DNA of 50,659 bases from Lentisphaeria bacterium (lineage in GTDB: Bacteria; Verrucomicrobiota; Lentisphaeria; Victivallales; Victivallaceae), in assembly GCA_017508015.1 (NCBI GenBank), contig JAFVZS010000070.1, positions 1 to 50,659 of the forward strand. The letters are read 5' to 3'. Shown in pieces: positions 318 through 46,540 of the stretch. A program made the translations under genes and the position numbers. Below the pieces are notes generated by a model. That model saw nothing but the letters and a program-made list of their open reading frames with translations. It ran no database searches and was not told where the DNA came from. The stretch's first letter is position 1. The number at the start of each line of letters is the position of its first letter.

Positions 318-533
318 ATGGTGGCAATTTGTCCGGCTTGCAAGTATGAATATGAAGTGGAGCATGGGAAGTATCAATGCGGTATTTGCGGAACAAAATT
401 TTTCATATTCAAAGATGGCAGAATTGAAATAGCAGCTCCGGCACCGGTGCCGGAGGAACGGGCAACTGCTCCGATCCCGGTTGTGGCGGCGATCCCGGTG
501 GTTACTCCGATCCCGGCAAAAAAACAAGGATGA
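318..533 (+). CDS. small zinc-ribbon protein (71 aa) with a Pro/Ala/Val-rich tail
   Basis: Two CxxC pairs (CPAC...CGIC) sit in the first 25 aa. The ORF has its own promoter, SD and a downstream rho-independent terminator. Confidence 0.6.
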   Translation: MVAICPACKYEYEVEHGKYQCGICGTKFFIFKDGRIEIAAPAPVPEERATAPIPVVAAIPVVTPIPAKKQG

Positions 534-557
534 GCGAAGCGGTTGCCGGTTGATATG

Positions 558-598
558 CTCCTGAAGGTCATTTCCGATATTCGGGAGTTTTGTTTTTT
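558..598 (+). terminator. rho-independent terminator of the zinc-ribbon gene
   Basis: Stem CTCCTGAA (558-565) pairs with TTCGGGAG (580-587): 8 bp including one G-U. The loop is 14 nt and is followed by TTTTGTTTTTT. Confidence 0.6.
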
Positions 599-608
599 GC
601 GCATAATC

Positions 609-1003
609 CGTTTTCTTTGCCTGCTTTCTTTATAGAAAAGAACGCAGGGAATTTCGCTTTTCTTTGGTTACTTTCTTTTCTCGTGAAAATGCAGAATAAC
701 ATTTACGTTTTCTTTGCCTGCTTTCTTTATAGAAAAGAAAGTAGGGAATTTCGCTTTTCTTTGGTTACTTTCTTTTCTCGTGAGAATGTAGATGTAGAAT
801 GAAATTTCCGTTTTCTTTGCCTGCTTTCTTTATAGAAAAGAACGCAGGGAATCCCGCTTTTCTTTGGTTACTTTCTTTTCTCGTGAAAATGTAGATGTAG
901 AATGAAATTTCCGTTTTCTTTGCCTACTTTCTTTATAAAAAAGAAAGTAGGGAATCCCGCTTTTCTTTGGTTACTTTCTTTTCTCGTGAAAAGAAAGTAA
1001 CGG
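609..1003. repeat. tandem array of 4 near-identical units (97, 103, 103 and ~92 bp), each carrying hairpin-forming inverted repeats
   Basis: Units start at 609, 706, 809 and 912, each with CGTTTTCTTTGCC. Each unit has hairpin 1 (CCTRCTTTCTTT...AAAGAAMGYAGG), which is perfect with a 12-bp stem in unit 4 (923-951). Each also has the left arm of hairpin 2 (GTTACTTTCTTTTC). Only unit 4 completes hairpin 2: 970-983 pairs with 988-1001, a 14-bp stem with loop TCGT. There are no unique spacers. Confidence 0.9.
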
Positions 1004-3394
1004 CCAGGAGTGTTTGGGATAACGGGAGCGCATTTCGGCGCGGACAAGTTCCCAGGAGCCGGCCCAGAACCCCGGGAGATCGCAAGTTACCTGAACGGGG
1101 CGGCGTGCGGGGGAGAGCAATTCGATGCGCAGGGGGATGCGGTTTTTGCCGACGGTGGGGTGGGTATTGACGGTGTACAATTCCTGAATGATGATTCCGG
1201 CGGTAGGTTGAGGGCCGGAATAATTGATGGGGAATTTATGGCCGGATGGGGCGATGAAAAATTCCGGGCAGAGCCGATCGAGTTCAGAAAGGGTGATGTA
1301 ATCGATGGCGGAACGGAGGATGCTGAACCAGTCGGCTTTTTTTAAGTCGTTGAGATTATTGATGTTATCCGGGAAAAAGTTGGCGATGGATATAAAATAG
1401 GAGTATTCATCGGTCAAATCGGGCAGTTCATCCATGCCGCAGGATTTTGCGAAACGGATCCGTTGTAAAAGGGAAGAGGCGCGTTTGTTGTCGGCCGGTG
1501 GCAGAGGGATGGCGCGGCGGGCGGATTCTTTGAGCAGTGCGGGGATCACGGTTTCGCGCGGCACGGGACACAGGTGACGGGAAAGGGGCAATTCATCAAG
1601 ACATTTTTCGGTATAAGAGATCAATTTTCCGGAGTTGCTGTCAAAGGTGGTGACAGTTCTTGCGGAGATTTGTCCGGAGAAAAAAGTTTCGATAGTTGAC
1701 CGGTCGATGGGCAGTGCCAGACGGATGGCGGCATTGGCGGCAGAAGTGCCGTCGATACGGGCGATGGCGAGGAACTCATTTTTACGCAGGAAGTCATCTT
1801 CTCTGACAGATGCGGCACTGCCGTTGGCCAGTTGAAAGGTGGTTCCGTGGGAGGAACGGTTGCGGGCGATGTATTCCGGGAAGGCGATGGCGATGAGCAG
1901 ACCGGGATCATCGGAAGAGTTTTCCGGAGCTGGAGGGAATATTTTAAGAAGCTGGGAAATGATGGTTTGCCGGATGTGTCCGGAGTTTTTGCCGGAATCC
2001 AACTGCCGGATACGTTCGGTCAGGTCGGCGGTATTGAAGTGGGTGAAATCATCTTTTTCCTCTAAAATGGCGGCCAATTCGGCGGCGGTACGGCGCAGGG
2101 ATGGCGGGGCGAAGATCATCATGGCGGCCAGTCGCGGAGAAACCGGCATGACGGCAGCCTGTTTCCCGGCGGGAGTCGGGAGATTTGCCGGAGAGAGCAG
2201 AGAAAGTTTCTGAAGCAGAGCAGTTGCGGCGGCGACTGCGGCCGCCGGAGGGGGATCGAGCCAGCGCAAAGAGGCAGCATCGGCCCCCCAAACCCTTACG
2301 GAAAGGATCAAGCGGGATAATTCAGAGACGGTTATTTCCGGGGACGGAGCTTGGCAGAATTGTTCGAAAGTTAAACGGCTGTAACATCTTACAGCTTTGC
2401 CCGGGGCAGTTCTGCCTGCTCTGCCGGAGCGTTGAATGGCAGAAGCTTTGGTGATTCGTCCGGTTTCAAGAAAGGTCATTTGTGCACCGGGGTGATATAC
2501 GGCCCGCTTTCCCCAGCCGGAATCAATAACGCATGAGATATTGTCGATGGTCAGGCTGCTTTCGGCGACATTGGTAGCCAGAATAATGTTGTGCACATCC
2601 GGCGGCGGCGGGGCCATGGCGGCATGCTGTTCGGCAAGAGAGAGCGAACCATGAAGGACACGGGTTTGGAAATTTTTTCCAAGAGATTGATCCAGAATCA
2701 GTTTACATTTTCTGATCTCTTCGGCACCGGGCAGGAAAACCAGAATATTTCCATTGGAGATATGGAGATTTTCCAGAACCGCCCGGGCGGTTTGCCGGGG
2801 GATTTCCCGGATATCCGGCGGAGTTTCGCGATAGGAGATGTCGACCGGAAAAGTGCGTCCGGGGACCGTGATAAGCGGTGCGTGGATAAAGTCGGCGGTG
2901 CGCTGGGATTCCAATGTGGCAGACATGATGACCAGAATCAGATCATCGCGCAGGGAATCCCGGATATCCAGAACGAGTGTCAGGGCCAAATCCGATTCGG
3001 CAGAGCGTTCGTGAAATTCATCGAATATGATGGCATTTATTCCTTCAAGAGCCGGATCATGCTGGAGCATTTGCAGTAAAATTCCGGGGGTGACAGCCAG
3101 AATGCCGTCAGAGTGACAGCGGCACTGTTCGCCGCGGACGGCGAATCCGGTTTCTTTACCGACGGTGAGGTTGTGGAGTTTGGCGATTCCGCAGGCGGCG
3201 GCCCGGGCGGCGATCCGGCGCGGTTCAACGAGGATGGTCATGCCGCCGGGAGAAAATTCATTGATCAACGGTGGCACGAGCATGGTTTTCCCGGCACCGG
3301 GTTCAGCGGAAATCACCGCCATACGGCAGGCAGACAACGCATTACGGAGCTCATCAAGCTGATGATAAAGCGGCAGATTCGGAAATTGATTCAT
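971..3394 (-). CDS. hrpB: ATP-dependent RNA helicase HrpB (DEAH-box)
   Basis: 807 aa. Walker A AEPGAGKT, DEFHERS (DEAH box), MSATL motif, and a C-terminal RYPKHSWP as in HrpB. The last 9 codons and the stop lie inside the repeat hairpin at 970-1001. Confidence 0.95.
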   Translation of the reverse strand: MNQFPNLPLYHQLDELRNALSACRMAVISAEPGAGKTMLVPPLINEFSPGGMTILVEPRRIAARAAACGIAKLHNLTVGKETGFAVRGEQCRCHSDGILAVTPGILLQMLQHDPALEGINAIIFDEFHERSAESDLALTLVLDIRDSLRDDLILVIMSATLESQRTADFIHAPLITVPGRTFPVDISYRETPPDIREIPRQTARAVLENLHISNGNILVFLPGAEEIRKCKLILDQSLGKNFQTRVLHGSLSLAEQHAAMAPPPPDVHNIILATNVAESSLTIDNISCVIDSGWGKRAVYHPGAQMTFLETGRITKASAIQRSGRAGRTAPGKAVRCYSRLTFEQFCQAPSPEITVSELSRLILSVRVWGADAASLRWLDPPPAAAVAAATALLQKLSLLSPANLPTPAGKQAAVMPVSPRLAAMMIFAPPSLRRTAAELAAILEEKDDFTHFNTADLTERIRQLDSGKNSGHIRQTIISQLLKIFPPAPENSSDDPGLLIAIAFPEYIARNRSSHGTTFQLANGSAASVREDDFLRKNEFLAIARIDGTSAANAAIRLALPIDRSTIETFFSGQISARTVTTFDSNSGKLISYTEKCLDELPLSRHLCPVPRETVIPALLKESARRAIPLPPADNKRASSLLQRIRFAKSCGMDELPDLTDEYSYFISIANFFPDNINNLNDLKKADWFSILRSAIDYITLSELDRLCPEFFIAPSGHKFPINYSGPQPTAGIIIQELYTVNTHPTVGKNRIPLRIELLSPARRPVQVTCDLPGFWAGSWELVRAEMRSRYPKHSWPLLSFHEKRK

Positions 3395-4386
3395 GATTTA
3401 TTCTTTCCGGAAGCCAGCGGATGGGCATCCAAATAAACTTTTTTAAGCCTTTCTGTGCTCACATGGGTGTATATCTGGGTGGTGGAAAGATTTTCGTGGC
3501 CGAGCATCTCCTGTACACTGCGCAAGCTTGCTCCGGCATCCAGCAGATGGGTGGCAAATGAGTGGCGCAGTTTATGCGGGGTGAGATCCGGCGGCAAACC
3601 GGCGGTCACGAGATAATTTTTCAGATTTCGCTGAAAAGAGCGCGGTGTCAGCCGGGACCCTTGCTGATTGAGAAAGAGCGGGGCTCCGGCCAGCCGGCTG
3701 CCTCCGGCGGCATTGCGGAAACGGAGATATTCCCGGATCGCCTGTTTTGCCGGACCGCCGAGTACGGCGAGGCGTTCTTTTTTGCCTTTGCCGCGGATTT
3801 TGACGATACCGCTGGAAATATCGGCATCAATATAATTCAAATTGAGAGCTTCGCTGATACGCAATCCGCCGGAATAGATGCTTTCGATAATGGCCCGGTC
3901 GCGGGAGGCGGAAAAGAGTGCGCCGCCTTCAGTACGGGCAGTGCCGGAAGACAGAGCATTTTCCCAGAAGATGGTCACCGCATTTATCAGCAGTTCGATC
4001 TGATTGATGCTCATTACTTTTGGCAGAGGTTTTCCGGCTTTGATCTGCGGCAGGTCGCAGAATGGATTGGCTGCCACGATCCCGGCGGTCATCAGATAGC
4101 GGAAAAATGACCGCATGGAAGAGAGTTTCCGTTGAATGGAGCGTTTGGAATTTCCGGATTCATTCAGTGCCATGACAAATGATCGGGCCTGTTCCCGGTC
4201 AACGCTTTGCCAATCATCAAAAGAAGCATCGGAGTTGCGGATTTTTACTGCGAATTCCACTACTCCGGAATAGTAAGCCGCAACAGTATGTTCTGAAGAA
4301 TTTTTTTCATTTTGCAGATGCCGGATGAATCCGGCAAGCAAATTTCCGGTTTTGACAGATTTTTTTTCAATTTCCATTTGCACCAC
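3391..4386 (-). CDS. tyrosine site-specific recombinase, XerC/XerD family
   Basis: 331 aa. Motifs GLRISEAL, HKLRHSFATHLL and LGHENLSTTQIYTHV (catalytic Tyr). A 4-nt ATGA overlap with the hrpB start suggests translational coupling. Confidence 0.93.
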   Translation of the reverse strand: MVQMEIEKKSVKTGNLLAGFIRHLQNEKNSSEHTVAAYYSGVVEFAVKIRNSDASFDDWQSVDREQARSFVMALNESGNSKRSIQRKLSSMRSFFRYLMTAGIVAANPFCDLPQIKAGKPLPKVMSINQIELLINAVTIFWENALSSGTARTEGGALFSASRDRAIIESIYSGGLRISEALNLNYIDADISSGIVKIRGKGKKERLAVLGGPAKQAIREYLRFRNAAGGSRLAGAPLFLNQQGSRLTPRSFQRNLKNYLVTAGLPPDLTPHKLRHSFATHLLDAGASLRSVQEMLGHENLSTTQIYTHVSTERLKKVYLDAHPLASGKNKS

Positions 4387-4454: not shown

Positions 4455-5312
4455 ATGAATCGGAGTTCTTTTTGGGTTTTTTTGACCATGTTTTGCGTTG
4501 CGGTTGCCGGAGCGGCGGAACGTCCGTCAGTAAAAGGTGTGGTCAATGCAGATGTTTTAAATTTGCGTCAGGGGCCGGGGTTGCAGCAGCCGGTAGTCGG
4601 CCGGATCACGGAAAAAAGCGAAGTGGAAATTTTACGGGTGACCGGAAATTGGCTGGAAATAAAAGCCCCGTCCACCTTGGCCGTTTATGTTTCCGAGGCC
4701 CGTATCGGCCGGGATGGCGTATTGACCGGCGAGTTGAATATGCGTACGGCGATGAGCAGTAAAGCTCCGTGTCTTGGAACTTTGCCCAAAGGGACCAAAG
4801 TAAATAAAATCGGTGAATCCCGCAATGGTTGGGTACGTATTGAGTTGCCCGCAGAAGCCGGTATTTCGGTATATGCCGCATCATTTCTGGTGACCTTTGA
4901 TTCATCCAAATTTGATGCCGGCGGCAATATCATCGGTACTGTTCCGGCAGAAGCTCCGGCGACTGCTGAAAAACCTGCCGCCGCAGAAGTTCCGGCGACT
5001 GCTGAAAAACCTGCCGCCGCAGAAGTTCCGGCGACTGCTGAAAAACCTGCCGCCGCAGAAGCTCCGGCCGCCGCTGACAAGATCGAGTTGACCGGTTATG
5101 TCTGCAAATGGAAATACAGCACTGCCAAAGAGTGCGATTACACTTTGCTTGATGAACCCAATGGTTTCAATCTGGCTTTCATTTTCAGTGAAACTCCTGC
5201 TGAACTTGCTGCGCTTGAAGGTAAAAAGGTAAAAGTTTCCGGAAGCAATGCCGGCAGATTCGGCAATAACGGAGTGATCATTATCAAAGTGGACAGCATT
5301 GCTGAATTATAA
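4455..5312 (+). CDS. secreted protein with two SH3b-like domains, a repeat linker and a C-terminal domain
   Basis: Signal peptide MNRSSFWVFLTMFCVAVAGAA. Two segments match the pattern 'G.V....LN.R.GP.......G......V.......GNW..I' / 'NGWVRIELP', typical of bacterial SH3 domains. A Pro/Ala/Glu repeat linker follows. Confidence 0.85.
   Translation: MNRSSFWVFLTMFCVAVAGAAERPSVKGVVNADVLNLRQGPGLQQPVVGRITEKSEVEILRVTGNWLEIKAPSTLAVYVSEARIGRDGVLTGELNMRTAMSSKAPCLGTLPKGTKVNKIGESRNGWVRIELPAEAGISVYAASFLVTFDSSKFDAGGNIIGTVPAEAPATAEKPAAAEVPATAEKPAAAEVPATAEKPAAAEAPAAADKIELTGYVCKWKYSTAKECDYTLLDEPNGFNLAFIFSETPAELAALEGKKVKVSGSNAGRFGNNGVIIIKVDSIAEL
4948..5076 (+). repeat. in-frame 36-bp tandem repeat (3 full units plus one partial) encoding AEVPATAEKPAA
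   Basis: The unit GCAGAAGTTCCGGCGACTGCTGAAAAACCTGCCGCC occurs at 4948, 4984 and 5020 and is nearly perfect. A partial fourth copy runs to 5076. Confidence 0.9.
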
Positions 5313-33797: not shown

Positions 33798-33824
33798 GTG
33801 ATCGGTTTGGTCATCATCAGCATT

Positions 33825-34724
33825 ATGAAAAAGTTGATCCGTCCGGCAATGCTGATATTGCCGTTATGTACCGGAATGTTTTTTCCGCAAGCGGCCTTTC
33901 TTGCCGGTGCGCCGTATAATTTCATCCGTTGGGCACTGGGAGTGATGATCTTTTGCAATGTTTTGCAGATCAATTTTGCCGATCTGAAAGTGCGTAAAGA
34001 ACACTTTGCCGTGCTTGGCGTGAATATCCTTATGGGAGTGATCCCGTTTTATATCTTGAAGTTTCTGTTGCCTTCCGGAGAAATTTATTCACATGCCGCT
34101 TTTTTTGCCGGTATTGCACCAACTGCGACGTCGGCGGCAGTGATCGTTTCTCTGCTTAACGGCGATGTCGGTTTTGCAGTTACCGGGTTTCTGGTCACCA
34201 ATATCGGCATATCGCTGGTGCTGCTGTTGCTTATTCCGCTGATTTCCGGTGATTTTTCCGCATCTTTCATGCTCAATGTATTGTGGTCGATCATCAGTAC
34301 GATCATTATTCCCATGGGCTGTGCCCGGATCATCCGCCATGTTTATCCGGAGATACTCAAACATCGGGATGAATTGAAAAATTTCACGCTTGTTTTATGG
34401 TCAGCATCTTTATTTGTCATCGCGGCAGTTGCCCGGAAATATTTTGATCAGAATGCCGGAGCTTCACTTTGGTCTCTGGCGGTTACGGGAGTGATTGCCG
34501 CAGTTGTTTGTGCTTTGAATTTCACCATCGGTTACTTTTTGAGCCGCGGAAAATTCCGGAAGGAAGCATCGCAGATACTGGGGCAGAAAAACACCACATT
34601 TGCCATCAGTCTGGCAATCGAATATTCCAGCGGGATTGCCGCTTTATCCGCCATATTTTACGTATTGTTTCACAATCTCTGGAATTCACTTCAACTGTTG
34701 AGGCATCACGGGAAAGGCAACTGA
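33825..34724 (+). CDS. membrane transporter, bile acid:Na+ symporter (BASS/SBF)-like
   Basis: About 9-10 TM helices. FFAGIAPTATSAAVIVSLLNGD resembles the BASS signature segment. The start is uncertain: the track's GTG 33798 lies in the upstream terminator T-tract, and the next start is ATG 33825. Confidence 0.7.
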   Translation: MKKLIRPAMLILPLCTGMFFPQAAFLAGAPYNFIRWALGVMIFCNVLQINFADLKVRKEHFAVLGVNILMGVIPFYILKFLLPSGEIYSHAAFFAGIAPTATSAAVIVSLLNGDVGFAVTGFLVTNIGISLVLLLLIPLISGDFSASFMLNVLWSIISTIIIPMGCARIIRHVYPEILKHRDELKNFTLVLWSASLFVIAAVARKYFDQNAGASLWSLAVTGVIAAVVCALNFTIGYFLSRGKFRKEASQILGQKNTTFAISLAIEYSSGIAALSAIFYVLFHNLWNSLQLLRHHGKGN

Positions 34725-37122: not shown

Positions 37123-37151
37123 TTGCATTTGGATAAAAGAGAGTATATATT
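37123..37151 (+). promoter_or_regulatory. sigma70-type promoter of the LacI-family gene
   Basis: TTGCAT (37123-37128), 17-nt spacer, TATATT (37146-37151). Confidence 0.6.
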
Positions 37152-37155
37152 ATTA

Positions 37156-37171
37156 GCGCAAACGTTTGCGC
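37156..37171. promoter_or_regulatory. LacI-family operator O1, a perfect 16-bp palindrome
   Basis: GCGCAAACGTTTGCGC lies immediately downstream of the -10 element. It has the AAACGTTT core typical of LacI/GalR-family operators. Confidence 0.75.
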
Positions 37172-37196
37172 AAAGTAGATTTTCAGGGTGGTATAT

Positions 37197-38180
37197 ATGG
37201 CGACACTTGCAGATGTAGCAGCATTGGCCGGTTGTTCGGTATCGGTTGTTTCGCGGGTTTTGAGACCCAAAGACAGCGGCAGTGACCGTATTGCTCCGGC
37301 GACCAGAGACCGGGTCCGTGAAGCCGCCGCCAAACTCGGTTACCGCCCGAATCGCACGGCGGAGTTTCTGAAATACGGCAGAGTTCCGGAAATAGGGGTG
37401 TTTTTGCCCCGGTTCGACAACTCGCTGATTCTGGATATCGTGAGGGGTTGTTCCGAAGCCGCCAGAGAAGCCGGATTTCCTCTTTCCTTTTTCTTTGATC
37501 AGGAAGTTGACAATTTCAGCCGGTTCATGCATGATACTATCGGCCGCAAAAATTGCGGTATCATCACCTGCGCTCCGGAATTGGAGCTGGCCGGTGAATC
37601 TTTCAAACTGATTAGCAATTATTGTGATGCCGGTGGTTTTCTGGTGTTGATCGATAACTGTGAGCGCGAATTTGTTTGTAATGAACGTGCGGCCAAAGTG
37701 ATCGTGGATGATGAATATGGCGGTTTTCTGGCGGCACAGCGTCTGTTGGAAAGCAACTGTGAAAAATTCTTCATTCAGGCTCCCAGGCGGCCGAGGGCAT
37801 ACGGCTTTATCAAAGGCATCGAAGGTGCTGGCAAAGAGGTGATCTGGCTGCCTAAAGGTGATCAGGCTACTGAAGAACTTTTTACGATGCTGATGAATTG
37901 TTCCACCACGGCCGGAGTTTTCTGCAGCAGTGACCGTCTGGCGATAAAACTTCATTCCAAATTGGCCGGAGTCGGTGAAATGCCCGGCAACCGGATCAAA
38001 CTGATCGGTTACGATGATACTTACAACTCCGATGTGTTGTCTCCGGCATTGACTTCCATCCGGCAACCGTTTTTTGAAAGCGGTTTTCTGGCGGTGAAAT
38101 ATCTTTTGAATATGATCTATGATCAGCCGGTTGAGCCGGAGATCCTCAAACCGGTTTTAATCGGAAGGCAAACCGCATGA
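37197..38180 (+). CDS. LacI family transcriptional regulator
   Basis: N-terminal HTH ATLADVAALAGCSVSVVSRVL, followed by a periplasmic-binding-protein-like sugar-binding core. ATG 37197 is preferred over the track start 37188. Confidence 0.93.
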   Translation: MATLADVAALAGCSVSVVSRVLRPKDSGSDRIAPATRDRVREAAAKLGYRPNRTAEFLKYGRVPEIGVFLPRFDNSLILDIVRGCSEAAREAGFPLSFFFDQEVDNFSRFMHDTIGRKNCGIITCAPELELAGESFKLISNYCDAGGFLVLIDNCEREFVCNERAAKVIVDDEYGGFLAAQRLLESNCEKFFIQAPRRPRAYGFIKGIEGAGKEVIWLPKGDQATEELFTMLMNCSTTAGVFCSSDRLAIKLHSKLAGVGEMPGNRIKLIGYDDTYNSDVLSPALTSIRQPFFESGFLAVKYLLNMIYDQPVEPEILKPVLIGRQTA

Positions 38181-38208
38181 TTTTGCGGCAAAGTTTTTTT
38201 GAATAATT

Positions 38209-38226
38209 TGCTCAAACGTTTGCGCA
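38209..38226. promoter_or_regulatory. LacI-family operator O2
   Basis: TGCTCAAACGTTTGCGCA shares CAAACGTTTGCGCA with O1 and has one arm mismatch. It ends 3 nt before the AAAGGAG SD of the 38241 gene. Confidence 0.7.
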
Positions 38227-38240
38227 AAGAAAGGAGCATT

Positions 38241-39395
38241 ATGAAAACGAAGTGTAAACAAGCTGTGGATAAAAATTTGCAATGGTTTTGCTCCTCCGGG
38301 GTGATGGTTCCGGAAAATGGTTTATGGGGGGTGGCCGAGCGTCTGGCTGTGAAAAGTGGCAATGCGGCATTGGATGAGATACTGGAGTCATTTCCGGCCT
38401 GGACGGAAAAGTCTGATTGTTATGTTATCGAACAGCGGCGGGCAGATTGCAACTTCCAGGCGGCATGGCTTTTTCTGCTGGCTGACCGGATTTTTCCGGG
38501 GTGCGGTTACGGGGAGACCGGAAAGAATATTCTGGATTTTCTCTATTGCCGCAGCGGTTTGCTGGAGCGCAAAAAAAGTGCCGATATCCCCGGCAACTGG
38601 AATTGGTCACACATCAAGCGGGATTCCGTAGTATATTTTGATGATGAAGCGTGGTGCATATTCATCCAGTTGCGTATTGCCGATGAATTTCCGGAATTGG
38701 ATAAGCGGTACAATATGCGTTTCTGGGCGGAAACTCTGGCTGAAAGTTTATATGCCGGTGCAACTGACCCGGATAAGACTCCACTGTGGCGGGGGGAATT
38801 GGCCAAGCCGCACTGGGGGGCTCTGGCCGCCATGGCTCTGGCCCAAAGCGGTGGAAAAAATATGGATAAGTACCGGAAGTTTTGTCTGGAATATTTCCGC
38901 AATGTCGATATTCCCAACGTGAGCGAATATGCGTATGCTCTTTTGGGAGCGGTAAATTGTATGTTGAAATTCGGCAGGGAAGATTTTTTACCTTTGGTGG
39001 AAAAATATGTTGATGCCATTATTTCCGTTTGTGATCCGGCAAGCGGCTTGCCTCCTTCGGAACACAGCCGGGAAACTCCGGCGGGTAAAAATCTGGCGGA
39101 TTTGATCTACACGGTCAACTGGGCCGTTGCCGGTCTGCGGGAAGCCGGATTGCTTCTCGGAGGCAAATGTACTGAAATCGCCGGAAAAATTCTGGATTTT
39201 CTGCATAGTATACAGGATGATTCAGCCAATAAAACATTCAACGGCTGCTGGCGGGGAATGTATGATACTGCCACCGGCAAATGGGGCGGCGGTGATCGTT
39301 TTGAAGGTGGCGGGAACAGTATTTATACCGGCTGGACCAATGCGCCGATCGCATTGACCATGCTGTTTGAATATATGGGAAAAAGTATGTTTTAA
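38241..39395 (+). CDS. hypothetical cytoplasmic protein, possibly an (alpha/alpha)-toroid enzyme
   Basis: 384 aa from ATG 38241 (SD AAAGGAG; the track start at TTG 38199 overlaps operator O2). The protein is helix-rich and W-rich with no signal peptide. I did not confidently recognise a family. Confidence 0.8.
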
Positions 39396-39418
39396 TGGTC
39401 ATGAAAGGAGATTGGGAA

Positions 39419-40336
39419 ATGTTGAAAAAAAGAAAAGTTTTTACGTTGATCGGGTTGCTGGTAAGCACAGTTATCTCACCATTGCATTTTTTGACACCAA
39501 AATCTTACCGCACGGCATCATCAAAAAGTATCCCGCTTTTCTTTGAAAGCGAAAGGGGGCGCGGGGGAAAGGGAAAACTCTCTTTTCCCGTGAAAAGAAA
39601 GTTTTCCTTGTCCACCGCACACTCATTTACTTTAATAGAATTGCTGGTGGTCATTGCCATTATTGCCATTTTAGCGGCGATCCTGCTTCCGGCACTTAAT
39701 TCTGCCCGTGAGCGGGGGCGGGCAGCAAGTTGCATAGCCAACATGAAGCAGATGATTTCCGGTTATCATCTGTATTGGGATGATGCAGATATGCCGTTGC
39801 CGCCGCGTATGACCAGAGAGGGCAGTGGCAAGCCGTGGTTGAGCTGGTATTGGTATCTGGCTCCTTATATTGGTCTGCCCCGGTATGAGTCGCACAGCAA
39901 ATTGCTGGCAGATATGCGCTCCAGACAGGGCAGTTCGGTTTATGATTGTCCGTCGGTGGTCAAGCATGAGAATAACGAATTGGGCGGGGCTCCGACCTAT
40001 AAATTCACGGCGCACTACTTTACCCGAACCATGCATGGCAGAACGCAGGATGCCGATCCGAATTGTCCCAACACCTCTGATACTCTGGTTTTTGTCGATG
40101 GAGATGATGGCAATACGGCGCAAAGTTTCGGTACGGCGGCATGGTATCGGCTGACCAGACACACCGGAGAGAAAGAGTATGGTCAGGGGGCCGGTGCGCA
40201 TAATGGTTCGGTGACGGTCGGTTTTTATGATGCTCATGTCGGCATGGTGAAAACCGCCAGTTACACGGATGCTCAAGGAAAGTTGCGTATGGGTATTCCC
40301 GGCACGGTCGCTGAATATGAAAAATATTGGTATTGA
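39419..40336 (+). CDS. prepilin-type N-terminal cleavage/methylation domain protein, H-X9-DG (DUF1559-like) family, with a duplicated leader
   Basis: Canonical [29 protein letters not shown] starts at codon F=39626. The C-terminus has [12 protein letters not shown] (H-X9-D). ATG 39419 has a strong AAGGAG SD (39405-39410) and encodes a first, degenerate leader, [15 protein letters not shown]. An alternative in-frame GTG lies at 39590. Confidence 0.88.
39530..39607 (+). repeat. copy of the hairpin repeat family seen at 609-1003, embedded in the prepilin-like gene 5' region
   Basis: ATCCCGCTTTTCTTTG (39530-39545) is identical to 851-866 and 954-969. The hairpin 39572-39587 / 39592-39607 pairs 15 of 16 bp with loop CCGT. 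Its core CTTTTCCCGTGAAAAGAAAGT matches 20 of 21 nt of CTTTTCTCGTGAAAAGAAAGT at 978-998. Confidence 0.85.
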
Positions 40337-40338
40337 TC

Positions 40339-43257
40339 ATGAAAAATATAATCGTATTTTTATGTTCAGCAGTCATGTTTTTCTCTGCGGTTGCGGGGTA
40401 TGATTTCAACAAGGCATTCTGGAGTTGCTGGCCGCGCAATGCCGGTAAAGTGGAAAGTTTGCGTGACCGGGGGAAACGGACGGTATCGTTTGAGTTTCAA
40501 AATTCAACTGTTCCGGTATCTTTTTACACCAGAGGCACTGGCAATGCCGGTGAACTTTGCCGGTTGGATATGGAATTTGAATGCAGTGATTTGCAGATGA
40601 CGGAAAGCAGTTCGGCGAAAGTCATTATCGCATTTCAAAATGAGAGCAAACGCCCCGGCAGTGCCGGGGAAATTTCGCATGATTTACCGCTGGCCGCCGG
40701 CAGAAATAATTTCCGTTGTTCTTTTGTTATGCCCGATGGTGCGGCAGATTATCAGATTTCCCTGTGTTTGACCGGCATTTCCGGCAAGATAAGTGTGACC
40801 GGATGCCGGGTGGAAGTTTTGCCGTTAAGTGCGGTAATTGCTCCGTATGCCGGAGGATCGGCGGCATCCCGTTATGTGACCGCCACCGGGATCAACGGTT
40901 TTTTCCGTTACGGCAGTGCTTATCCGGCGGTTGCGGATTCGACGGTTTTTCTGACTTATGACCGGGAAAATCTTTATGTGAAAGTTATTTGCCGGGAAAG
41001 TGACATCTCATGTTTGCGTACTGCTGTAAGTGATTGTGACGGGCCGGTTTATCTGGATGATTCGGTGGAGTTGTTTTTTGCTCACGGCGACCGGGTCTGG
41101 CAGTTGGTGACGAATAGTGCCGCAGTCCGCTGTGACGGGGAATTGAAAATTTCCATTCCCGGTGATCCCCGCCGCTTTGATGCGTCGTGGAACGGGTCAT
41201 GGCGGGTCGAATGTGAAAAGGGCGAAGGATTATGGAGTGCGGAATTTATCATTCCTTTTGCCGATCTTGAGTTTGCTCCGGCTGCCGGAGCAGTGTTGCG
41301 GGTGAATGTGTTGCGCAACCGCCGGGGCGCAGCGCAGGAGCAGACCCAGCTTGACCGGCGTTTCGGAATGCCGGGCAAGGAGGCTCACTTCAGCCGGATC
41401 ACATTCAGAAACAGTGATGCACTTTTCGTCCGCAGTGTGATGGATATGGATGGCGATACGCTGGCGGTAGTCCGGCAGAAACGGGAATTTGCCCAGGTGC
41501 CCCGGCGAGACGGGAATTATCTGGTCATCGGCCCCGGATGCGACATCTATCTGGAGCGTTACAGCGCACCATTCCAGGAGCAGAACCGGGAAAGTTGGCC
41601 GCAAAGAACGATGGAGATCATTGCCGCAATGCAGAATAACGGTATGCTGGTTCCGGCGTTTTATCCGTGGGTGATCCAGCATTTGGGCGGCCGGGAAAAC
41701 TATTCCCGGATCATGGCCGCATATCCGGATCTGAAGTTTGCACTTGCCATTCACAATACTTCCCACGACCGCACTGTTATTGGCAATGGAGCCGTTTATT
41801 TTCACGGGAGATCAAGCAATATCGGGGATAAAAAACTGGGAATATGCACGGCGGAATTTCTGGAAAAATTTCTTACGGAAAATGCCGATGCGGTCAGTCG
41901 CTCTGTTTTTGCCAGAGGTTTTGATGAACCGACAAATTCATTGATCTCCTGTTTCAGTTATTCGCTGAATCCGGAAAATCTCACCGCATTGCAGAGTTTG
42001 AATGAATTTATCCGGAAAAATTACGGTTACGGGAAATATGGTATGCCGGATCTGAACCGGGGGATGACCGATCCGGATGACGGTTTGCGCCATATTGCAT
42101 TCTGCCGCTGGTGGAATGATCAGGCGGCGGCAACTTTCAACCGGTTGCGGGATATTTTGAAAAATCATGCTCCGCAAATGCCGTTTATGCCGCTGGTTTG
42201 CAATACTGTGGCGGCTTACAGCGGCTTTGAAGAGTTGCCGTTGCTGGCCCGTTACGGTGATTGGATCGGGGTCGATCCTTATCCGACTGCCACACGCACT
42301 ATTTTTTCAGCGGCAAGAGCGGTTTATCACACCGGATTTTGCACCAGATTGGCTCATGATCTGGCGTCACCGGCCAAAATTTTTGTTTATGTGCAGGCAT
42401 TCCGTTATCACGGGCAATCGCCCAGTGCGGAAAACCTCACTGAATGGGTGTCACAGGCATTGAAAAACGGTGCGGATATCCTCTCATTCTATGCGTTGAA
42501 AAATTTGGAAGAGTGTCCGGATATTTACCCGCAAATATTGAATTTGAGCCGGAGCGTTACCACGATGAGACCTTTGGCTCTGCCGGAGAAAAGTCCGGTG
42601 GCGATATTGTATAATTATGTCGGCAACTGGGGGCGTTTTGACCGGGGACAGATGGATTATTATTCGCTGTATTCCATTTTTGCCGAAAAGATCAGAGGGG
42701 ATTTTGTCTTTATCAGTGACCGTCAGTTGATGGAAGATAAAAAAGTGCCGGCTCATGTGAAAATATGCTTTGCCCCGGCATTGGAATATGTGGATAAGTC
42801 AGTGGCCAACGCGTTGGAAAATTTTGTGCGTAACGGCGGTACATTGATTATCCTTGATCCGGAAGCATTCCGGATCGCACCGGATGGTGAGCCGGTGGCA
42901 CAGCGGGAAAGTTTACTGGGTGATCCAGTGACAACAGCGATACCGGCGGCCGGATTTATCTATTTCGGAGCCGGCCGCAAACCGTTGCGGATTTTTGCGG
43001 ATAACGGCGCAACGTGCCGGGCGGTCGTGCCGCCGGATGATGCTGAAGTGGAAGCGGTCTGGACCAATGGCCGGTGTGCCGCTTACCGCCGTCAGGTCGG
43101 CAAGGGTAAAGTTATATATTTTGCGGTCAATCCTTTTGCCAACGGGGAAGCGGCACTTCAGGCGGGAAACTGGGTGGAGTATTTCTATAACTTTTTCCGG
43201 GAAAACGGCGTGCGCCGGGGGATGAAGATCTGGGATTTCGTTTTGCCGGGGAATTGA
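40339..43257 (+). CDS. large secreted protein with a CBM9/DOMON-like carbohydrate-binding module and a possible glycoside-hydrolase-like C-terminal region
   Basis: Signal peptide MKNIIVFLCSAVMFFSAVAG. The segment YLDDSVELFFA...WSAEFIIPFADL...LRVNVLRNR resembles CBM family 9. The C-terminal part (GVDPYP, FVRNGGTLIILDPEAF) is reminiscent of a GH42-type barrel plus a GATase1-like domain. The functional call is tentative. Confidence 0.82.
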   Translation: MKNIIVFLCSAVMFFSAVAGYDFNKAFWSCWPRNAGKVESLRDRGKRTVSFEFQNSTVPVSFYTRGTGNAGELCRLDMEFECSDLQMTESSSAKVIIAFQNESKRPGSAGEISHDLPLAAGRNNFRCSFVMPDGAADYQISLCLTGISGKISVTGCRVEVLPLSAVIAPYAGGSAASRYVTATGINGFFRYGSAYPAVADSTVFLTYDRENLYVKVICRESDISCLRTAVSDCDGPVYLDDSVELFFAHGDRVWQLVTNSAAVRCDGELKISIPGDPRRFDASWNGSWRVECEKGEGLWSAEFIIPFADLEFAPAAGAVLRVNVLRNRRGAAQEQTQLDRRFGMPGKEAHFSRITFRNSDALFVRSVMDMDGDTLAVVRQKREFAQVPRRDGNYLVIGPGCDIYLERYSAPFQEQNRESWPQRTMEIIAAMQNNGMLVPAFYPWVIQHLGGRENYSRIMAAYPDLKFALAIHNTSHDRTVIGNGAVYFHGRSSNIGDKKLGICTAEFLEKFLTENADAVSRSVFARGFDEPTNSLISCFSYSLNPENLTALQSLNEFIRKNYGYGKYGMPDLNRGMTDPDDGLRHIAFCRWWNDQAAATFNRLRDILKNHAPQMPFMPLVCNTVAAYSGFEELPLLARYGDWIGVDPYPTATRTIFSAARAVYHTGFCTRLAHDLASPAKIFVYVQAFRYHGQSPSAENLTEWVSQALKNGADILSFYALKNLEECPDIYPQILNLSRSVTTMRPLALPEKSPVAILYNYVGNWGRFDRGQMDYYSLYSIFAEKIRGDFVFISDRQLMEDKKVPAHVKICFAPALEYVDKSVANALENFVRNGGTLIILDPEAFRIAPDGEPVAQRESLLGDPVTTAIPAAGFIYFGAGRKPLRIFADNGATCRAVVPPDDAEVEAVWTNGRCAAYRRQVGKGKVIYFAVNPFANGEAALQAGNWVEYFYNFFRENGVRRGMKIWDFVLPGN

Positions 43258-45835: not shown

Positions 45836-46540
45836 ATGAAACGATTTTTATATTCAATTGTGCTGTCGGCGGTCGTTTTTCTGACCGGTTCCGCCGCTGA
45901 ATCGGGACATGCCGCCGCAGAAAAAGCTGCCGCCGAAAAACTGGCCGCCGAAAAAGCCGCCGCCGAAAAACTGGCCGCCGAAAAAGCCGCCGCAGAAAAA
46001 CTGGCCGCCGAAAAAGCCGCCGCAGAAAAGGCGGTCATCGCAGCTGTGACCGGGCACCGGAGTGCATTGTTGAGTACAGATTTCAAGGCATTGCTTGCTC
46101 ACTGCTCTTCTGATTACCGGGAAACTGACGGCAATAGCCGCAGCCGCAGTTATGAGGAACTGGAAAAACTGGCCGGATATTTTCAATTGATGCAAAGTTC
46201 TGACGATCTGGAAGTGGTCATGGAAAATGCTCTGCTGCTTCAGGGCAGTTCCATGAGTGATTTCCAGCGGCAGCAGATCATTTCCGAAAAAAACAGTGCG
46301 CGCGGCAAGGAGCTTCTGACCATGCTTCGCACCAATTTCGCCAAACTGGCGGCTCAGGGACGGGAATTGGCCGCCCATATCCGGGTTTCTGCGGTGCGGA
46401 TAAATGGCGACCGGGCCACCGCAGTGTTGTATCTGACCGATCCGCTTTCCCGTAATACTTACCGCTGCGATTATCAACTGGTGAAACATGATGGCAAATG
46501 GCTGGTCAGCAGTACTGAAGTTAAAGGAACAGGCAAATGA
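45836..46540 (+). CDS. secreted NTF2-like (SnoaL/DUF4440-like) protein, paralog 1, with an AAEKAAAEKL repeat linker
   Basis: Signal peptide followed by the repeat linker. It shares a motif set with the next three genes (DF.ALL..C..DY...DG, SDDLEVV, QRQQI, DGKWLV). Confidence 0.82.
   Translation: MKRFLYSIVLSAVVFLTGSAAESGHAAAEKAAAEKLAAEKAAAEKLAAEKAAAEKLAAEKAAAEKAVIAAVTGHRSALLSTDFKALLAHCSSDYRETDGNSRSRSYEELEKLAGYFQLMQSSDDLEVVMENALLLQGSSMSDFQRQQIISEKNSARGKELLTMLRTNFAKLAAQGRELAAHIRVSAVRINGDRATAVLYLTDPLSRNTYRCDYQLVKHDGKWLVSSTEVKGTGK
45911..46033 (+). repeat. in-frame 30-bp tandem repeat (~4 units) encoding (AAEKAAAEKL)n
   Basis: GCCGCCGAAAAACTGGCCGCCGAAAAAGCC is repeated with single-base variants. 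Confidence 0.9.

Follow-up and report, generated by a model that had tools for sequence, protein, structure and literature searches.

An A/T-rich bacterial repeat with the sequence logic of an intrastrand triplex, and its in-frame derivative at the start of prepilin-like genes

The stretch of DNA analysed here (50,659 nt from a Lentisphaeria bacterium; hereafter the window, with all positions counted over the whole stretch) carries members of one repeat family in a tandem array at 607-1003 and within the 5′ part of a prepilin-like gene at 39419-40336. The basic module of this family is a short hairpin preceded by a pyrimidine block that is the mirror image of the hairpin's purine arm and that could act as the third strand of an intrastrand triple helix. 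The favoured explanation, with a probability of about one half, is a non-autonomous repeat that acts at the DNA level, an A/T-rich counterpart of the BoxC and potential intrastrand triplex (PIT) elements without a dedicated host function. The pilin element would be an enlarged derivative of a dispersed non-coding repeat whose basic form builds the array.

The defining property of the module, overlooked in an earlier sequence-only reading of the window, is the relation between the T-rich block and the hairpin. The block is the mirror image of the hairpin arms and not a direct or inverted repeat of them; when block and purine arm are both read 5′ to 3′, a T lies opposite every A and a C opposite every G. 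T opposite A and C opposite G, in parallel orientation, is the rule for a pyrimidine-motif (Hoogsteen) third strand. The pyrimidine block would be the parallel Hoogsteen partner of the purine arm, so that one strand can be predicted to fold into an intrastrand triple helix. The start of the block is always opposite the first purine past the loop, and its end is the G just before a 4-5-bp Watson-Crick extension of the stem. Among the matches listed, the mirror match covers 8-17 nt for 36 distinct purine arms, and the length of the third strand tracks that of the purine arm across the family, as in the following pairs:

Purine arm GAAAGAAAAG, upstream block CTTTCTTTT
Purine arm AAAGGAAAGAGAA, upstream block TTTCCTTTCTCTT
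Purine arm GAAAAAAGAAA, upstream block CTTTTTTCTTT
Purine arm GAAAAGAAAGAGAAAAA, upstream block CTTTTCTTTCTCTTTTT
Purine arm GAAGAAAAAG, upstream block CTTCTTTTT

Block and arm vary together. Summed over the 36 arms, the mirror run amounts to 382 against 288.6 ± 7.6 after random re-pairing (0 of 2000 permutations), and under a symmetric selection criterion mirror prevails over direct repeat by 28:5 upstream (p = 7e-5) as compared with 1:1 downstream. Antiparallel Watson-Crick pairing of the block (block A) with the purine arm was rejected, as was an origin of the block as a direct repeat; both give shorter runs than the mirror. The two bases before the block, its prefix, are complementary to two bases of the loop in 62 of 81 distinct modules (47 ± 2.3 when shuffled), with CG prefixes matching NCGN loops and GG prefixes matching loops that contain CC. 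The fold implied by these relations resembles an H-type pseudoknot, in which the 5′ strand would touch the loop and then follow the major groove of the stem. The putative triple helix would comprise 9-17 triples, the 17-triple version being found in Clostridia, and would be capped by the 2-bp prefix-loop pairing. Since template-directed copying should give direct or inverted repeats rather than mirror repeats, selection on parallel pairing would be the simplest cause of the pattern, and the triplex may form in cells. G:T and A:C mismatches are balanced (22 versus 25); they therefore carry no strand signal and are uninformative for assigning an RNA strand.

The module is widespread. A scan with the query CTTTTCNCGTGAAAAGAAAG, using one genome per species, found it again in at least 118 stretches of other genomes; the counts of modules given here rest on the matches listed. 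Nearly all of these stretches hold the composite module, that is CGCTTTTCTTTG followed by a short variable stem extension, an invariant pyrimidine/purine core and an NCGN loop. Read 5′ to 3′, the basic unit consists of CG, the pyrimidine block CTTTTCTTT, G, a stem extension of 4-5 bp, the pyrimidine arm, the NCGN loop, the purine arm and the other half of the extension. It is present in metagenome-assembled genomes (MAGs) of at least six phyla, including Lentisphaerota, Verrucomicrobiota, Nitrospirota, Hydrogenedentota, Clostridia/Oscillospirales and Proteobacteria, and some of the contigs that bear it reach 1.5 Mb. The stem extension covaries freely (GTTAC/GTAAC, CTGAC/GTCAG, CCTAC/GTAGG, GTAC/GTAC and others). 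Many copies occur per genome, and the arrays are in direct orientation. Viral contigs scanned with the hairpin core gave no match, nor did BLAST searches of the cassette described below against plasmids and of the array against phages. When the open reading frames (ORFs) within 2.5 kb of copies were clustered for the 118 listed loci, no transposase-like family emerged and the pilin family alone recurred. Rfam 15 at gathering thresholds has no match in the window, and in 15 loci tRNAs alone score; permissive E-values over window positions 500-1100 yield chance-level matches, the best sub-threshold one being wcaG RNA. This resemblance to the wcaG RNA motif (RF01761), which covers the last array unit at 919-1011 with 25.6 bits against a gathering score of 42, amounts to two similarly spaced hairpins and is judged to be due to chance.

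Two further observations concern longer repeats. Within Lentisphaeria the basic module is usually the 3′ end of a longer composite repeat with a conserved G+C-rich hairpin (..GATCAAGGCACGACAACGGAGTGCCGCGAC..), as seen at L036 7330-7390, L094, L035, L085 200-280 and L106 (L numbers denote loci). The SIG97 genome holds five copies of a composite repeat of about 190 nt at about 95% identity (L014, L018, L038, L099, L111).

The family relationship between the two loci of the window is plain. The 16-mer ATCCCGCTTTTCTTTG has exact copies at 851-866, 954-969 and 39530-39545 and copies with two mismatches at 651-666 and 748-763, in units 1 and 2 of the array; with up to three mismatches there are 8 matches, where 0.94 would be expected and none of 100 shuffles gave more than 4. 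Of the 21-mer hairpin core there is an exact copy at 39582-39602 and one that agrees in 20 of 21 positions at 978-998, and 6 matches with up to three mismatches compare with 0.01 expected. At both loci a pyrimidine arm and a purine arm form a stem around a 4-nt YCGT loop: the array stem (970-983/988-1001) has 14 perfect base pairs and the loop TCGT, and the pilin stem (39578-39587/39592-39601) has the loop CCGT. The sequence-only reading had reported both shared blocks and the common stem-loop geometry, and these are confirmed, the last by the inverted repeats. Its proposal that array and leader segment form one family is supported far beyond chance, and the shuffled-sequence control (0.01-0.94 matches versus 6-8 observed) shows that composition does not account for the similarity. 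Its description of the pilin locus needs correction. The two blocks had been placed 26 nt apart; the gap is 36 nt (39546-39581), and what had been taken for a G-rich spacer is a small hairpin together with the left arm of a long hairpin at 39561-39618. In the array the blocks had been said to abut, and the 16-mer does adjoin the hairpin base, whereas the 21-mer core begins 8 nt further on.

The array has the following parts:

607-1003, + strand: tandem array of four units of about 103 nt (Tandem Repeats Finder: period 103, 3.8 copies over 607-992, 92% matches)
Each unit: A-type module, CCGTTTTCTTTG plus a hairpin with ATAG or ATAA loop, preceding the B-type module
Each unit: B-type module, CGCTTTTCTTTG plus a hairpin with TCGT loop, its purine arm present only in the last unit
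617-651, + strand: A-type hairpin of unit 1 (equivalents at 714-748, 817-851 and 920-954)
655-689, + strand: truncated B-type module of unit 1, with block, pyrimidine arm, loop and GAAAA (equivalents begin at 752 and 855)
958-969, + strand: block A of the complete module, with prefix CG (958-959), the Hoogsteen-type pyrimidine strand CTTTTCTTT (960-968) and linker G (969)
970-1001, + strand: complete hairpin, a 14-bp stem made of the 5-bp extension GTTAC/GTAAC and the pyrimidine/purine core, with loop TCGT (984-987)

Block A of the complete module is a mirror match to the purine arm GAAAAGAAA, and its prefix is complementary to the CG of the loop. The complete hairpin is inverted repeat I5 (100% complementary). 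The A-type hairpins (inverted repeats I7, I6, I8 and I4) have 15-nt arms that are 87-93% complementary with 5 nt between them, and in the truncated B-type modules the right arm breaks 2-5 nt past the loop. A gene for an HrpB-type helicase (hrpB, ORF 971-3394, minus strand) ends in the array. Its stop codon (971-973) is inside the stem extension and the last hairpin therefore encodes the final residues of HrpB. On the other side of the array from hrpB, the plus strand has a terminator-like hairpin and T run at 570-598. The hrpB 3′ end in L085 carries a different insert between the module halves from that in the window. The junction of hrpB and array had 0 matches in a scan of Joint Genome Institute (JGI) metagenomes, exact-protein look-ups of the products of the pilin gene and hrpB found none on record, and that of ORF 4455-5312 led to a contig that ends short of the array. 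Directly upstream of hrpB, 2.4 kb from the array, is a tyrosine recombinase gene (3391-4386, minus strand; Phage_integrase and SAM-like N-terminal domains, XerC/D-like).

Many Lentisphaeria loci hold arrays whose inner units keep block, pyrimidine arm and loop without the purine arm; truncated left halves make up 16 of 82, and the break is always between the loop and position +7 of the right arm. For 25 of 63 basic modules an opposite-strand gene has its stop codon no more than 30 nt from the purine-arm side, and the stem extension often supplies that stop (TAA, TAG or TGA). Four modules abut tRNA 3′ ends; at L032 165-, L036 7431-7508, L037 655- and L094 0-4 nt separate the module from the 3′ (CCA) end of an opposite-strand tRNA gene. 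Modules run in the same direction as the upstream gene in 21 cases and in the opposite direction in 16. Related genomes do not share the same array content at orthologous sites, as L085 and L070 show by comparison with the window. In the SIG92 genome (L070 2215-2470) the ortholog of ORF 33798-34724 is followed by a module array of about 260 nt that is absent in the window, where a decayed hairpin relic at 34690-34724 still encodes the C-terminus of this ORF (...LQLLRHHGKGN*). The SIG92 ortholog ends in ...IQLLSFHGKRK*, encoded by an intact hairpin.

The second locus is inside a gene, with these features:

39419-40336, + strand: DUF1559 prepilin-like gene (Pfam N_methyl PF07963 and SBP_bac_10/DUF1559 PF07596)
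39440-39463, + strand: degenerate upstream N_methyl start, FTLIGLLV, with the Glu5 codon changed to Gly
39440-39625, + strand: in-frame cassette of 186 nt (62 codons) between the native leader MLKKRKV and FTLIELLVV, from a three-way DNA alignment
39464-39493, + strand: conserved left cassette segment AGCACAGTTATCTCACCATTGCATTTTTTG, encoding 10 residues and common to the cassettes in L001, L053, L058, L109, L110 and L121
39534-39545, + strand: block A, pilin copy, with prefix CG, CTTTTCTTT and G; it can also pair locally (helix 39532-39559)
39561-39618, + strand: long imperfect hairpin of 22 pairs, with pyrimidine arm 39578-39587, loop CCGT 39588-39591 and purine arm 39592-39601 at its top
39626-39697, + strand: functional N_methyl start (Pfam N_methyl), with the ATA Ile codon typical of element-adjacent copies

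This is the sole prepilin-type gene in the window and belongs to an operon of LacI, unknown, pilin-like and glycosidase-like genes. Translation probably begins at the ATG at 39419, which follows AAAGGAG. The 313-residue ORF holds two N_methyl-type starts with 54 residues between them, and the N_methyl motif proper is at residues 76-98. With the cassette, the stretch before FTLIELLVV has 69 residues (from the ATG at 39419) to 77 (from the start of the 313-residue ORF) and ends in AHS, unlike a canonical prepilin leader, which is short and basic with Gly at -1. An in-frame GTG (39590-39592) is at the tip of the long hairpin. The element at 39530-39607 forms the core of the cassette.

The pilin-type element is strongly structured. 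The fold of the locus has a minimum free energy of -55.6 kcal/mol (z = -5.5 versus shuffles). Among 21 distinct aligned copies of the long hairpin the share of paired cells is 99.4%, and compensatory changes occur in five pairs (GC/UA, CG/UA, AU/GC, AU/GC and GC/AU/CG) against 0-2 in slid controls. The compensatory changes in the stem that the earlier reading had proposed as a check are thus present. Helix 39532-39559 (helix 1) is 97.8% paired with one-sided changes only. A G-quadruplex reading of the G runs was rejected, as these pair with C runs and show compensatory changes. In 25 pilin-type copies from at least nine Lentisphaeria MAGs the distance from the start of the hairpin core to the FTLIELLV codons is exactly 44 or 47 nt. 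None of the 25 interrupts the pilin frame, not even where two tandem units occur, and the other two frames contain stops in all copies except one contig-edge fragment. Upstream ATG starts are in frame, each after a Shine-Dalgarno-like purine run. The element peptide is not conserved as a peptide and is not under selection as one: codon variants are nonsynonymous in 34 cases and synonymous in 9, variable columns have no third-position excess, and some copies use an alternative reading frame that gives LFFSREKK instead of SFPVKRKF. The conservation is therefore not owed to coding for KRKF. A scan for sigma-70 promoters in cassette and array found none, and an outward promoter is therefore unsupported.

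An exhaustive phmmer search with the 34-residue element peptide gave 52 protein clusters at 50% identity; it was used in place of a word-indexed protein search with the 54-residue insert peptide, which returned one match and was too insensitive. An FTLIE-type N_methyl start follows within 16 residues in 42 of the 52 clusters (5 more are cut by contig ends), and 27 also have an upstream truncated N_methyl start. In one Verrucomicrobia MAG a prepilin-type gene also carries this variant in-frame in its leader. The ratio of N_methyl starts with and without the element in fetched loci (21/26) is biased by the selection of loci and was not used for enrichment. The sequence-only reading had associated a conserved structured module with prepilin-type gene 5′ ends. 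This holds for the structured variant, with its 25 copies and 52 clusters, and fails for the module itself, most basic copies of which are at the 3′ ends of convergent genes or tRNAs.

Several other inserts share the leader-coding region. In RGIG5513 (L002 about 1700-1800, L043, L069, L029 and L100) four GTACGGA motifs 10 nt apart (GTACGGAnnnGTACGGAnnn...) precede the pilin-type element and read TDKYGRVR, and the tandem units of this genome break after GGGGGCGCGGGG and not at the hairpin tip. An element of about 26 nt (..ATATACCGGAGCCGACGTTCGG..) splits the left or right arm of pilin-type hairpins at L026 about 4095-4125 and L040 7762-7790. Unrelated short in-frame inserts just before FTLIELLV are found in L053 (about 4040-4105, minus-strand coordinates) and L110 and in proteins P0011, P0053 and P0028; one is a perfect palindrome, CACCTG...CAGGTG, read SPACRQVKL, and another is read ..TSLRPSGRTSR..SHLHIFTQSA. 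The leader-coding region of prepilin-like genes in the Planctomycetes-Verrucomicrobia-Chlamydiae (PVC) group therefore appears to collect several families of hairpin elements.

The cassette comes and goes between strains. Orthologs of the gene share its domain content; those at 86%, 74%, 74%, 69% and 55% identity have 243-250 residues and short leaders; one of them, P0055, begins MSEKRKV directly before the F of the N_methyl start. The 99%-identical ortholog P0054 has 365 residues and two cassettes. At the level of loci the series runs from no cassette (the empty allele L120) through one (the window and the 99.8%-identical L119) to two in L121, which shares the synteny of ParA, LacI, x, pilin and GH genes. 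The extra L121 cassette represents a second variant, its block and its purine arm each being one position shorter (CTTTTCTTG / GAAAAGAAG). Empty and filled pilin alleles differ by no short duplication, only by two diverged FTLIELLV-coding 24-mers. Because these two 24-mers flank the cassette, its ends can be rotated by 24 nt. The 24-mer adjacent to the hairpin almost always has the Ile codon ATA, other copies having ATC or ATT. Of the two histories offered earlier, an array built of leader-element fragments is not supported, and capture of a dispersed element by the pilin leader is favoured, because the basic module is found in phyla and settings that have nothing to do with pilins and because the pilin copy is an insertion that is absent from the 86%-identical ortholog and doubled in the 99%-identical strain. 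In SIG92 a 5.9-kb block (LacI, a 398-residue protein, the DUF1559 pilin-like gene and most of a 976-residue glycosidase-like gene; window 37127-43039 versus L070 4878/4879) is missing at the syntenic site, and since SIG92 retains the last 200 nt or so of the glycosidase-like gene, the block was deleted in its lineage.

A repeat without a host function would persist where it does little harm, that is between convergent genes, behind tRNAs and, if the frame is open, in the leader-coding region of prepilin-like genes. Replication could stall at the folded structure and the polymerase switch template, leading to expansion, contraction and spread; the breaks at the hairpin tip in the inner units of arrays would be accounted for in this way. 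Cassettes could also be gained or lost when the FTLIELLV-coding repeats on either side of them recombine or undergo gene conversion, which would explain alleles with 0, 1 or 2 units. The extended leader is presumably tolerated or removed.

The case for a cis-acting RNA element deserves the closest attention, even if the odds are clearly against it. The module would be a pseudoknot of the H type in which U.A-U and C+.G-C triples make up a long major-groove triple helix; placed just before the signal-anchor codons of pilin-like mRNAs, it would tune translation or mRNA stability, and the intergenic copies would be nuclease-resistant. A pyrimidine-motif triplex can form in RNA, and the mRNA-sense strand carries it in 25 of 25 pilin copies. 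The prefix-loop covariation has the pseudoknot topology of SAM-II, preQ1-II and telomerase pseudoknots, and the fold is very stable (z = -5.5). GC/GU/AU and UA/UG variation in the pilin variant points the same way, as does the co-orientation of modules with called upstream genes in one related Nitrospirota group. Orientation relative to the upstream gene is mixed overall, however, and 25 of the 63 basic modules are antisense to the nearest gene end, where the transcript would carry no third strand other than the purine type, which reportedly does not form in RNA (PMC4666352). The array of the window follows a terminator-like site on its own strand, the balance of G:T and A:C mismatches gives no sign of an RNA strand, the module matches no Rfam family in the window and 15 loci, and the element is gained and lost between near-identical strains with no sign of need. 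Mobilisation of the module as a single-strand DNA element end by a transposase, as in the palindrome-associated transposable elements (PATEs) derived from IS200/IS605 or in repetitive extragenic palindromic (REP) sequences mobilised by REP-associated tyrosine transposases (RAYTs), is still less likely. Here an enzyme would bind the triplex hairpin and insert it site-specifically at hairpin tips, behind stops and tRNAs and at FTLIELLV-coding sequence. Directly oriented hairpins on one strand do border the composite units, much as they border IS200/IS605 elements, with conserved sequence 5′ of the hairpin foot; junctions are precise at tRNA 3′ ends, at stop-bearing stem extensions and after the CTGGT of the N_methyl codons, and an identical core in several phyla suggests a shared enzyme. 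Such an enzyme finds no counterpart among the ORFs within 2.5 kb of the 118 listed loci, where nothing transposase-like recurs, and viral contigs, phage records and plasmid records hold no match. The 24-nt homologous repeats flanking the pilin cassette suffice for gain and loss by recombination. Known HUH systems, moreover, use short guide pairings and not 9-17 triples.

Two further explanations fare worse. Intrinsic transcription terminators behind genes and tRNAs would suit the position of modules near stop codons and tRNA 3′ ends, and are nonetheless very improbable. The stem is A/T-rich, and a T-rich tract 5′ of the hairpin on one strand with an A-rich tract 3′ on the other is the reverse of a terminator. 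The terminator scan called none of the modules, though it did call the canonical hairpin and T run beside the array at 570-598; within an ORF leader a terminator would be self-defeating, and PIT elements have no terminator activity (PMC4666352). Coding constraint or low complexity, that is Lys/Arg codons (KRKF) and an A/G- or T/C-rich composition with no structural element, is hardly tenable. It can point to the KRK encoded by the purine arm, to native leaders that are purine-rich as well (here ...AAAAAAAGAAAAGTT) and to a frame that is open in all copies. Against this, shuffled controls produce 0.01-0.94 matches where 6-8 are observed, non-coding DNA and other phyla hold the same module, its copies differ in the frame in which they are read (SFPVKRKF versus LFFSREKK), 34 nonsynonymous codon variants stand against 9 synonymous ones, and both the compensatory stem changes and the three-way covariation call for structure. 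A chance or coding explanation is thus refuted by the shuffle, frame, codon and covariation controls.

Several points weigh against a DNA repeat without host function. That the triplex forms in vivo is a prediction from sequence, and in vivo footprinting of BoxC did not support stable triplex formation (PMC4666352). It is difficult to account for a core that is nearly identical in distant phyla unless it spread horizontally or a conserved partner acts on it in trans, and neither was found. No clean empty/filled pair that would show or exclude a transposition-like insertion was obtained for the basic module. Some pairs of the pilin variant vary as GC/GU/AU and UA/UG on the mRNA-sense strand, and all pilin copies are sense-oriented, which fits RNA structure as well. 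Within one related Nitrospirota group every module with a called upstream gene is co-oriented with it (six rows, of which L015 and L073 represent a single orthologous site). Genes with a cassette have S, A, P or T in place of the canonical Gly directly before FTLIELLV, which makes it uncertain whether prepilin peptidase removes the long leader.

The element appears to be an A/T-rich, cross-phylum variant of the known intrastrand-triplex class for which comparative evidence of a triple helix is unusually strong, and its niche inside the starts of prepilin-like genes is previously undescribed. Prior evidence for selection on triplexes is thin: statistics of abundance, a single G/C-rich motif that folds in vitro, and in vivo footprints with a negative outcome. 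Here the third strand changes in length and sequence in step with the purine arm over 36 variants and at least six phyla, the kind of evidence that is normally accepted for RNA helices, and a compact 45-nt, sequence-defined object becomes available for testing triple helices in cells. In-frame hairpin cassettes whose number varies between near-identical strains also explain the long, odd and nested N-termini of prepilin-like proteins in PVC annotation; they affect gene-start calling, leader-peptide prediction and the clustering of paralogs. The prepilin-like family has very many paralogs in PVC genomes. A bolder proposal, tentative and with the odds against it, is that the module is a triple helix maintained by selection for a biological job. 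It would be either a new class of bacterial RNA triple-helix pseudoknot with prepilin-like PVC mRNAs among its targets or the structure recognised by a hitherto undescribed mobile system with conserved N_methyl-coding DNA as its homing site. The former would mean control of stability or translation, and the latter strain-level variation in the starts of pilin-like genes; on either, the three-way covariation across phyla would for the first time prove by comparison that a long intrastrand triplex is of consequence to living bacteria.

Two coding tandem repeats in the window lie apart from the family: one at 4947-5074 (36-nt period, 3.4 copies, 97% matches) in the SH3_3-domain ORF 4455-5312 and one at 45914-46029 (30-nt period, 3.9 copies, 96% matches) in ORF 45836-46540.

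Among known systems, the G-quadruplex of Neisseria pilE is likewise a sequence able to form non-B DNA 5′ in a pilin-type gene with strain-level variation. Here a covarying hairpin pairs the G runs with C runs, silent cassettes are lacking, and it is the number of leader cassettes that varies and not the mature protein. Triple-helix RNA pseudoknots (the SAM-II, SAM-V and preQ1-II riboswitches, telomerase RNA and ENE/MALAT1) share the topology and the U.A-U and C+.G-C triples. The module differs in lacking a ligand pocket or conserved unpaired nucleotides, in its much longer and more regular triplex and in being dispersed, multi-copy and often antisense to the nearest gene; it has no match to those Rfam families. 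A 2026 review of RNA triple helices gives, for bacteria, riboswitch and group II intron examples only (PMC13541005).

IS200/IS605 elements and PATEs resemble the module in that their sub-terminal hairpins are directly oriented on a single strand, that a functional sequence precedes the hairpin foot on its 5′ side and that target-site duplication is lacking. No TnpA or TnpB is found within 2.5 kb of copies in the 118 listed loci, however, and the upstream block of the module would pair with the stem over 9-17 positions and not with a 4-nt cleavage site; the ends of the element are not defined. REP sequences and bacterial interspersed mosaic elements (BIMEs) are also short clustered extragenic palindromes, often after stops between convergent genes, with many copies per genome. 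They are lineage-specific and have no triplex-forming third block, whereas the core of the module is common to several phyla; its arrays are head-to-tail rather than alternating in orientation, and no RAYT was seen within 2.5 kb of copies. Membership of REP/BIME was rejected given the direct-repeat arrays and the lack of a recurrent ORF near copies. The module was also rejected as a miniature inverted-repeat transposable element (MITE), as its units are bounded by direct-oriented modules and the pilin alleles have no target-site duplication.

Repeats with intrastrand triplex motifs have been catalogued in bacteria since 2000. They form a described class that comprises PIT elements, BoxC, TM_ECO and the intrastrand triplex-forming (ITxF) classes I-IV (Holder et al. 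2015, PMC4666352), the PIT, BoxC and TM_ECO work being attributed to Hoyne, Maher and colleagues as cited there. Such repeats are abundant in bacteria; BoxC belongs to class II, forms a triplex in vitro, has no promoter or terminator activity and is tied to local genomic instability (PMC4666352). The A/T-rich motif described here receives no mention in that paper (PMC4666352). Its likeness to PIT and BoxC is extensive. Three consecutive blocks on one strand (third strand, pyrimidine, purine) have triple-helix polarity, and by sequence the parallel Hoogsteen and antiparallel Watson-Crick pyrimidine blocks would make up the three-block arrangement of the class. The module strand is a class IV pyrimidine motif and the complementary strand a class II purine motif, class IV on one strand being class II on the other. 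Like PIT and BoxC it is multi-copy and mostly intergenic with no associated gene, occurs in palindromic configurations with partial deletions and is locally rearranged between close relatives. The basic module, with a triplex of 9 nt (up to 17 in Clostridia), a loop of 4 nt and a connector of 5-6 nt, fits the ITxF geometry (stems 6-15 nt, loops 1-6 nt) if the 4-5-nt extension and the G are counted as loop; the pilin copy falls outside, with 33 nt (39545-39577) between third strand and pyrimidine arm. It is not BoxC/TM_ECO itself, since it does not follow the consensus CCCTCNCCC N3-6 GGGNGAGGG N3 GGGNGAGGG: BoxC is G/C-rich (CCCTCNCCC...GGGNGAGGG), whereas the module is A/T-rich (CTTTTCTTT/GAAAAGAAAG) and unrelated in sequence. 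It further differs from BoxC and PIT in that its third strand is joined through a 1-nt linker and a Watson-Crick stem extension in place of a 3-nt loop and that it has a 2-bp prefix-loop pairing. It is found in at least six phyla with a third strand whose length follows the purine arm, and a derivative of it lives in-frame inside prepilin-like genes.

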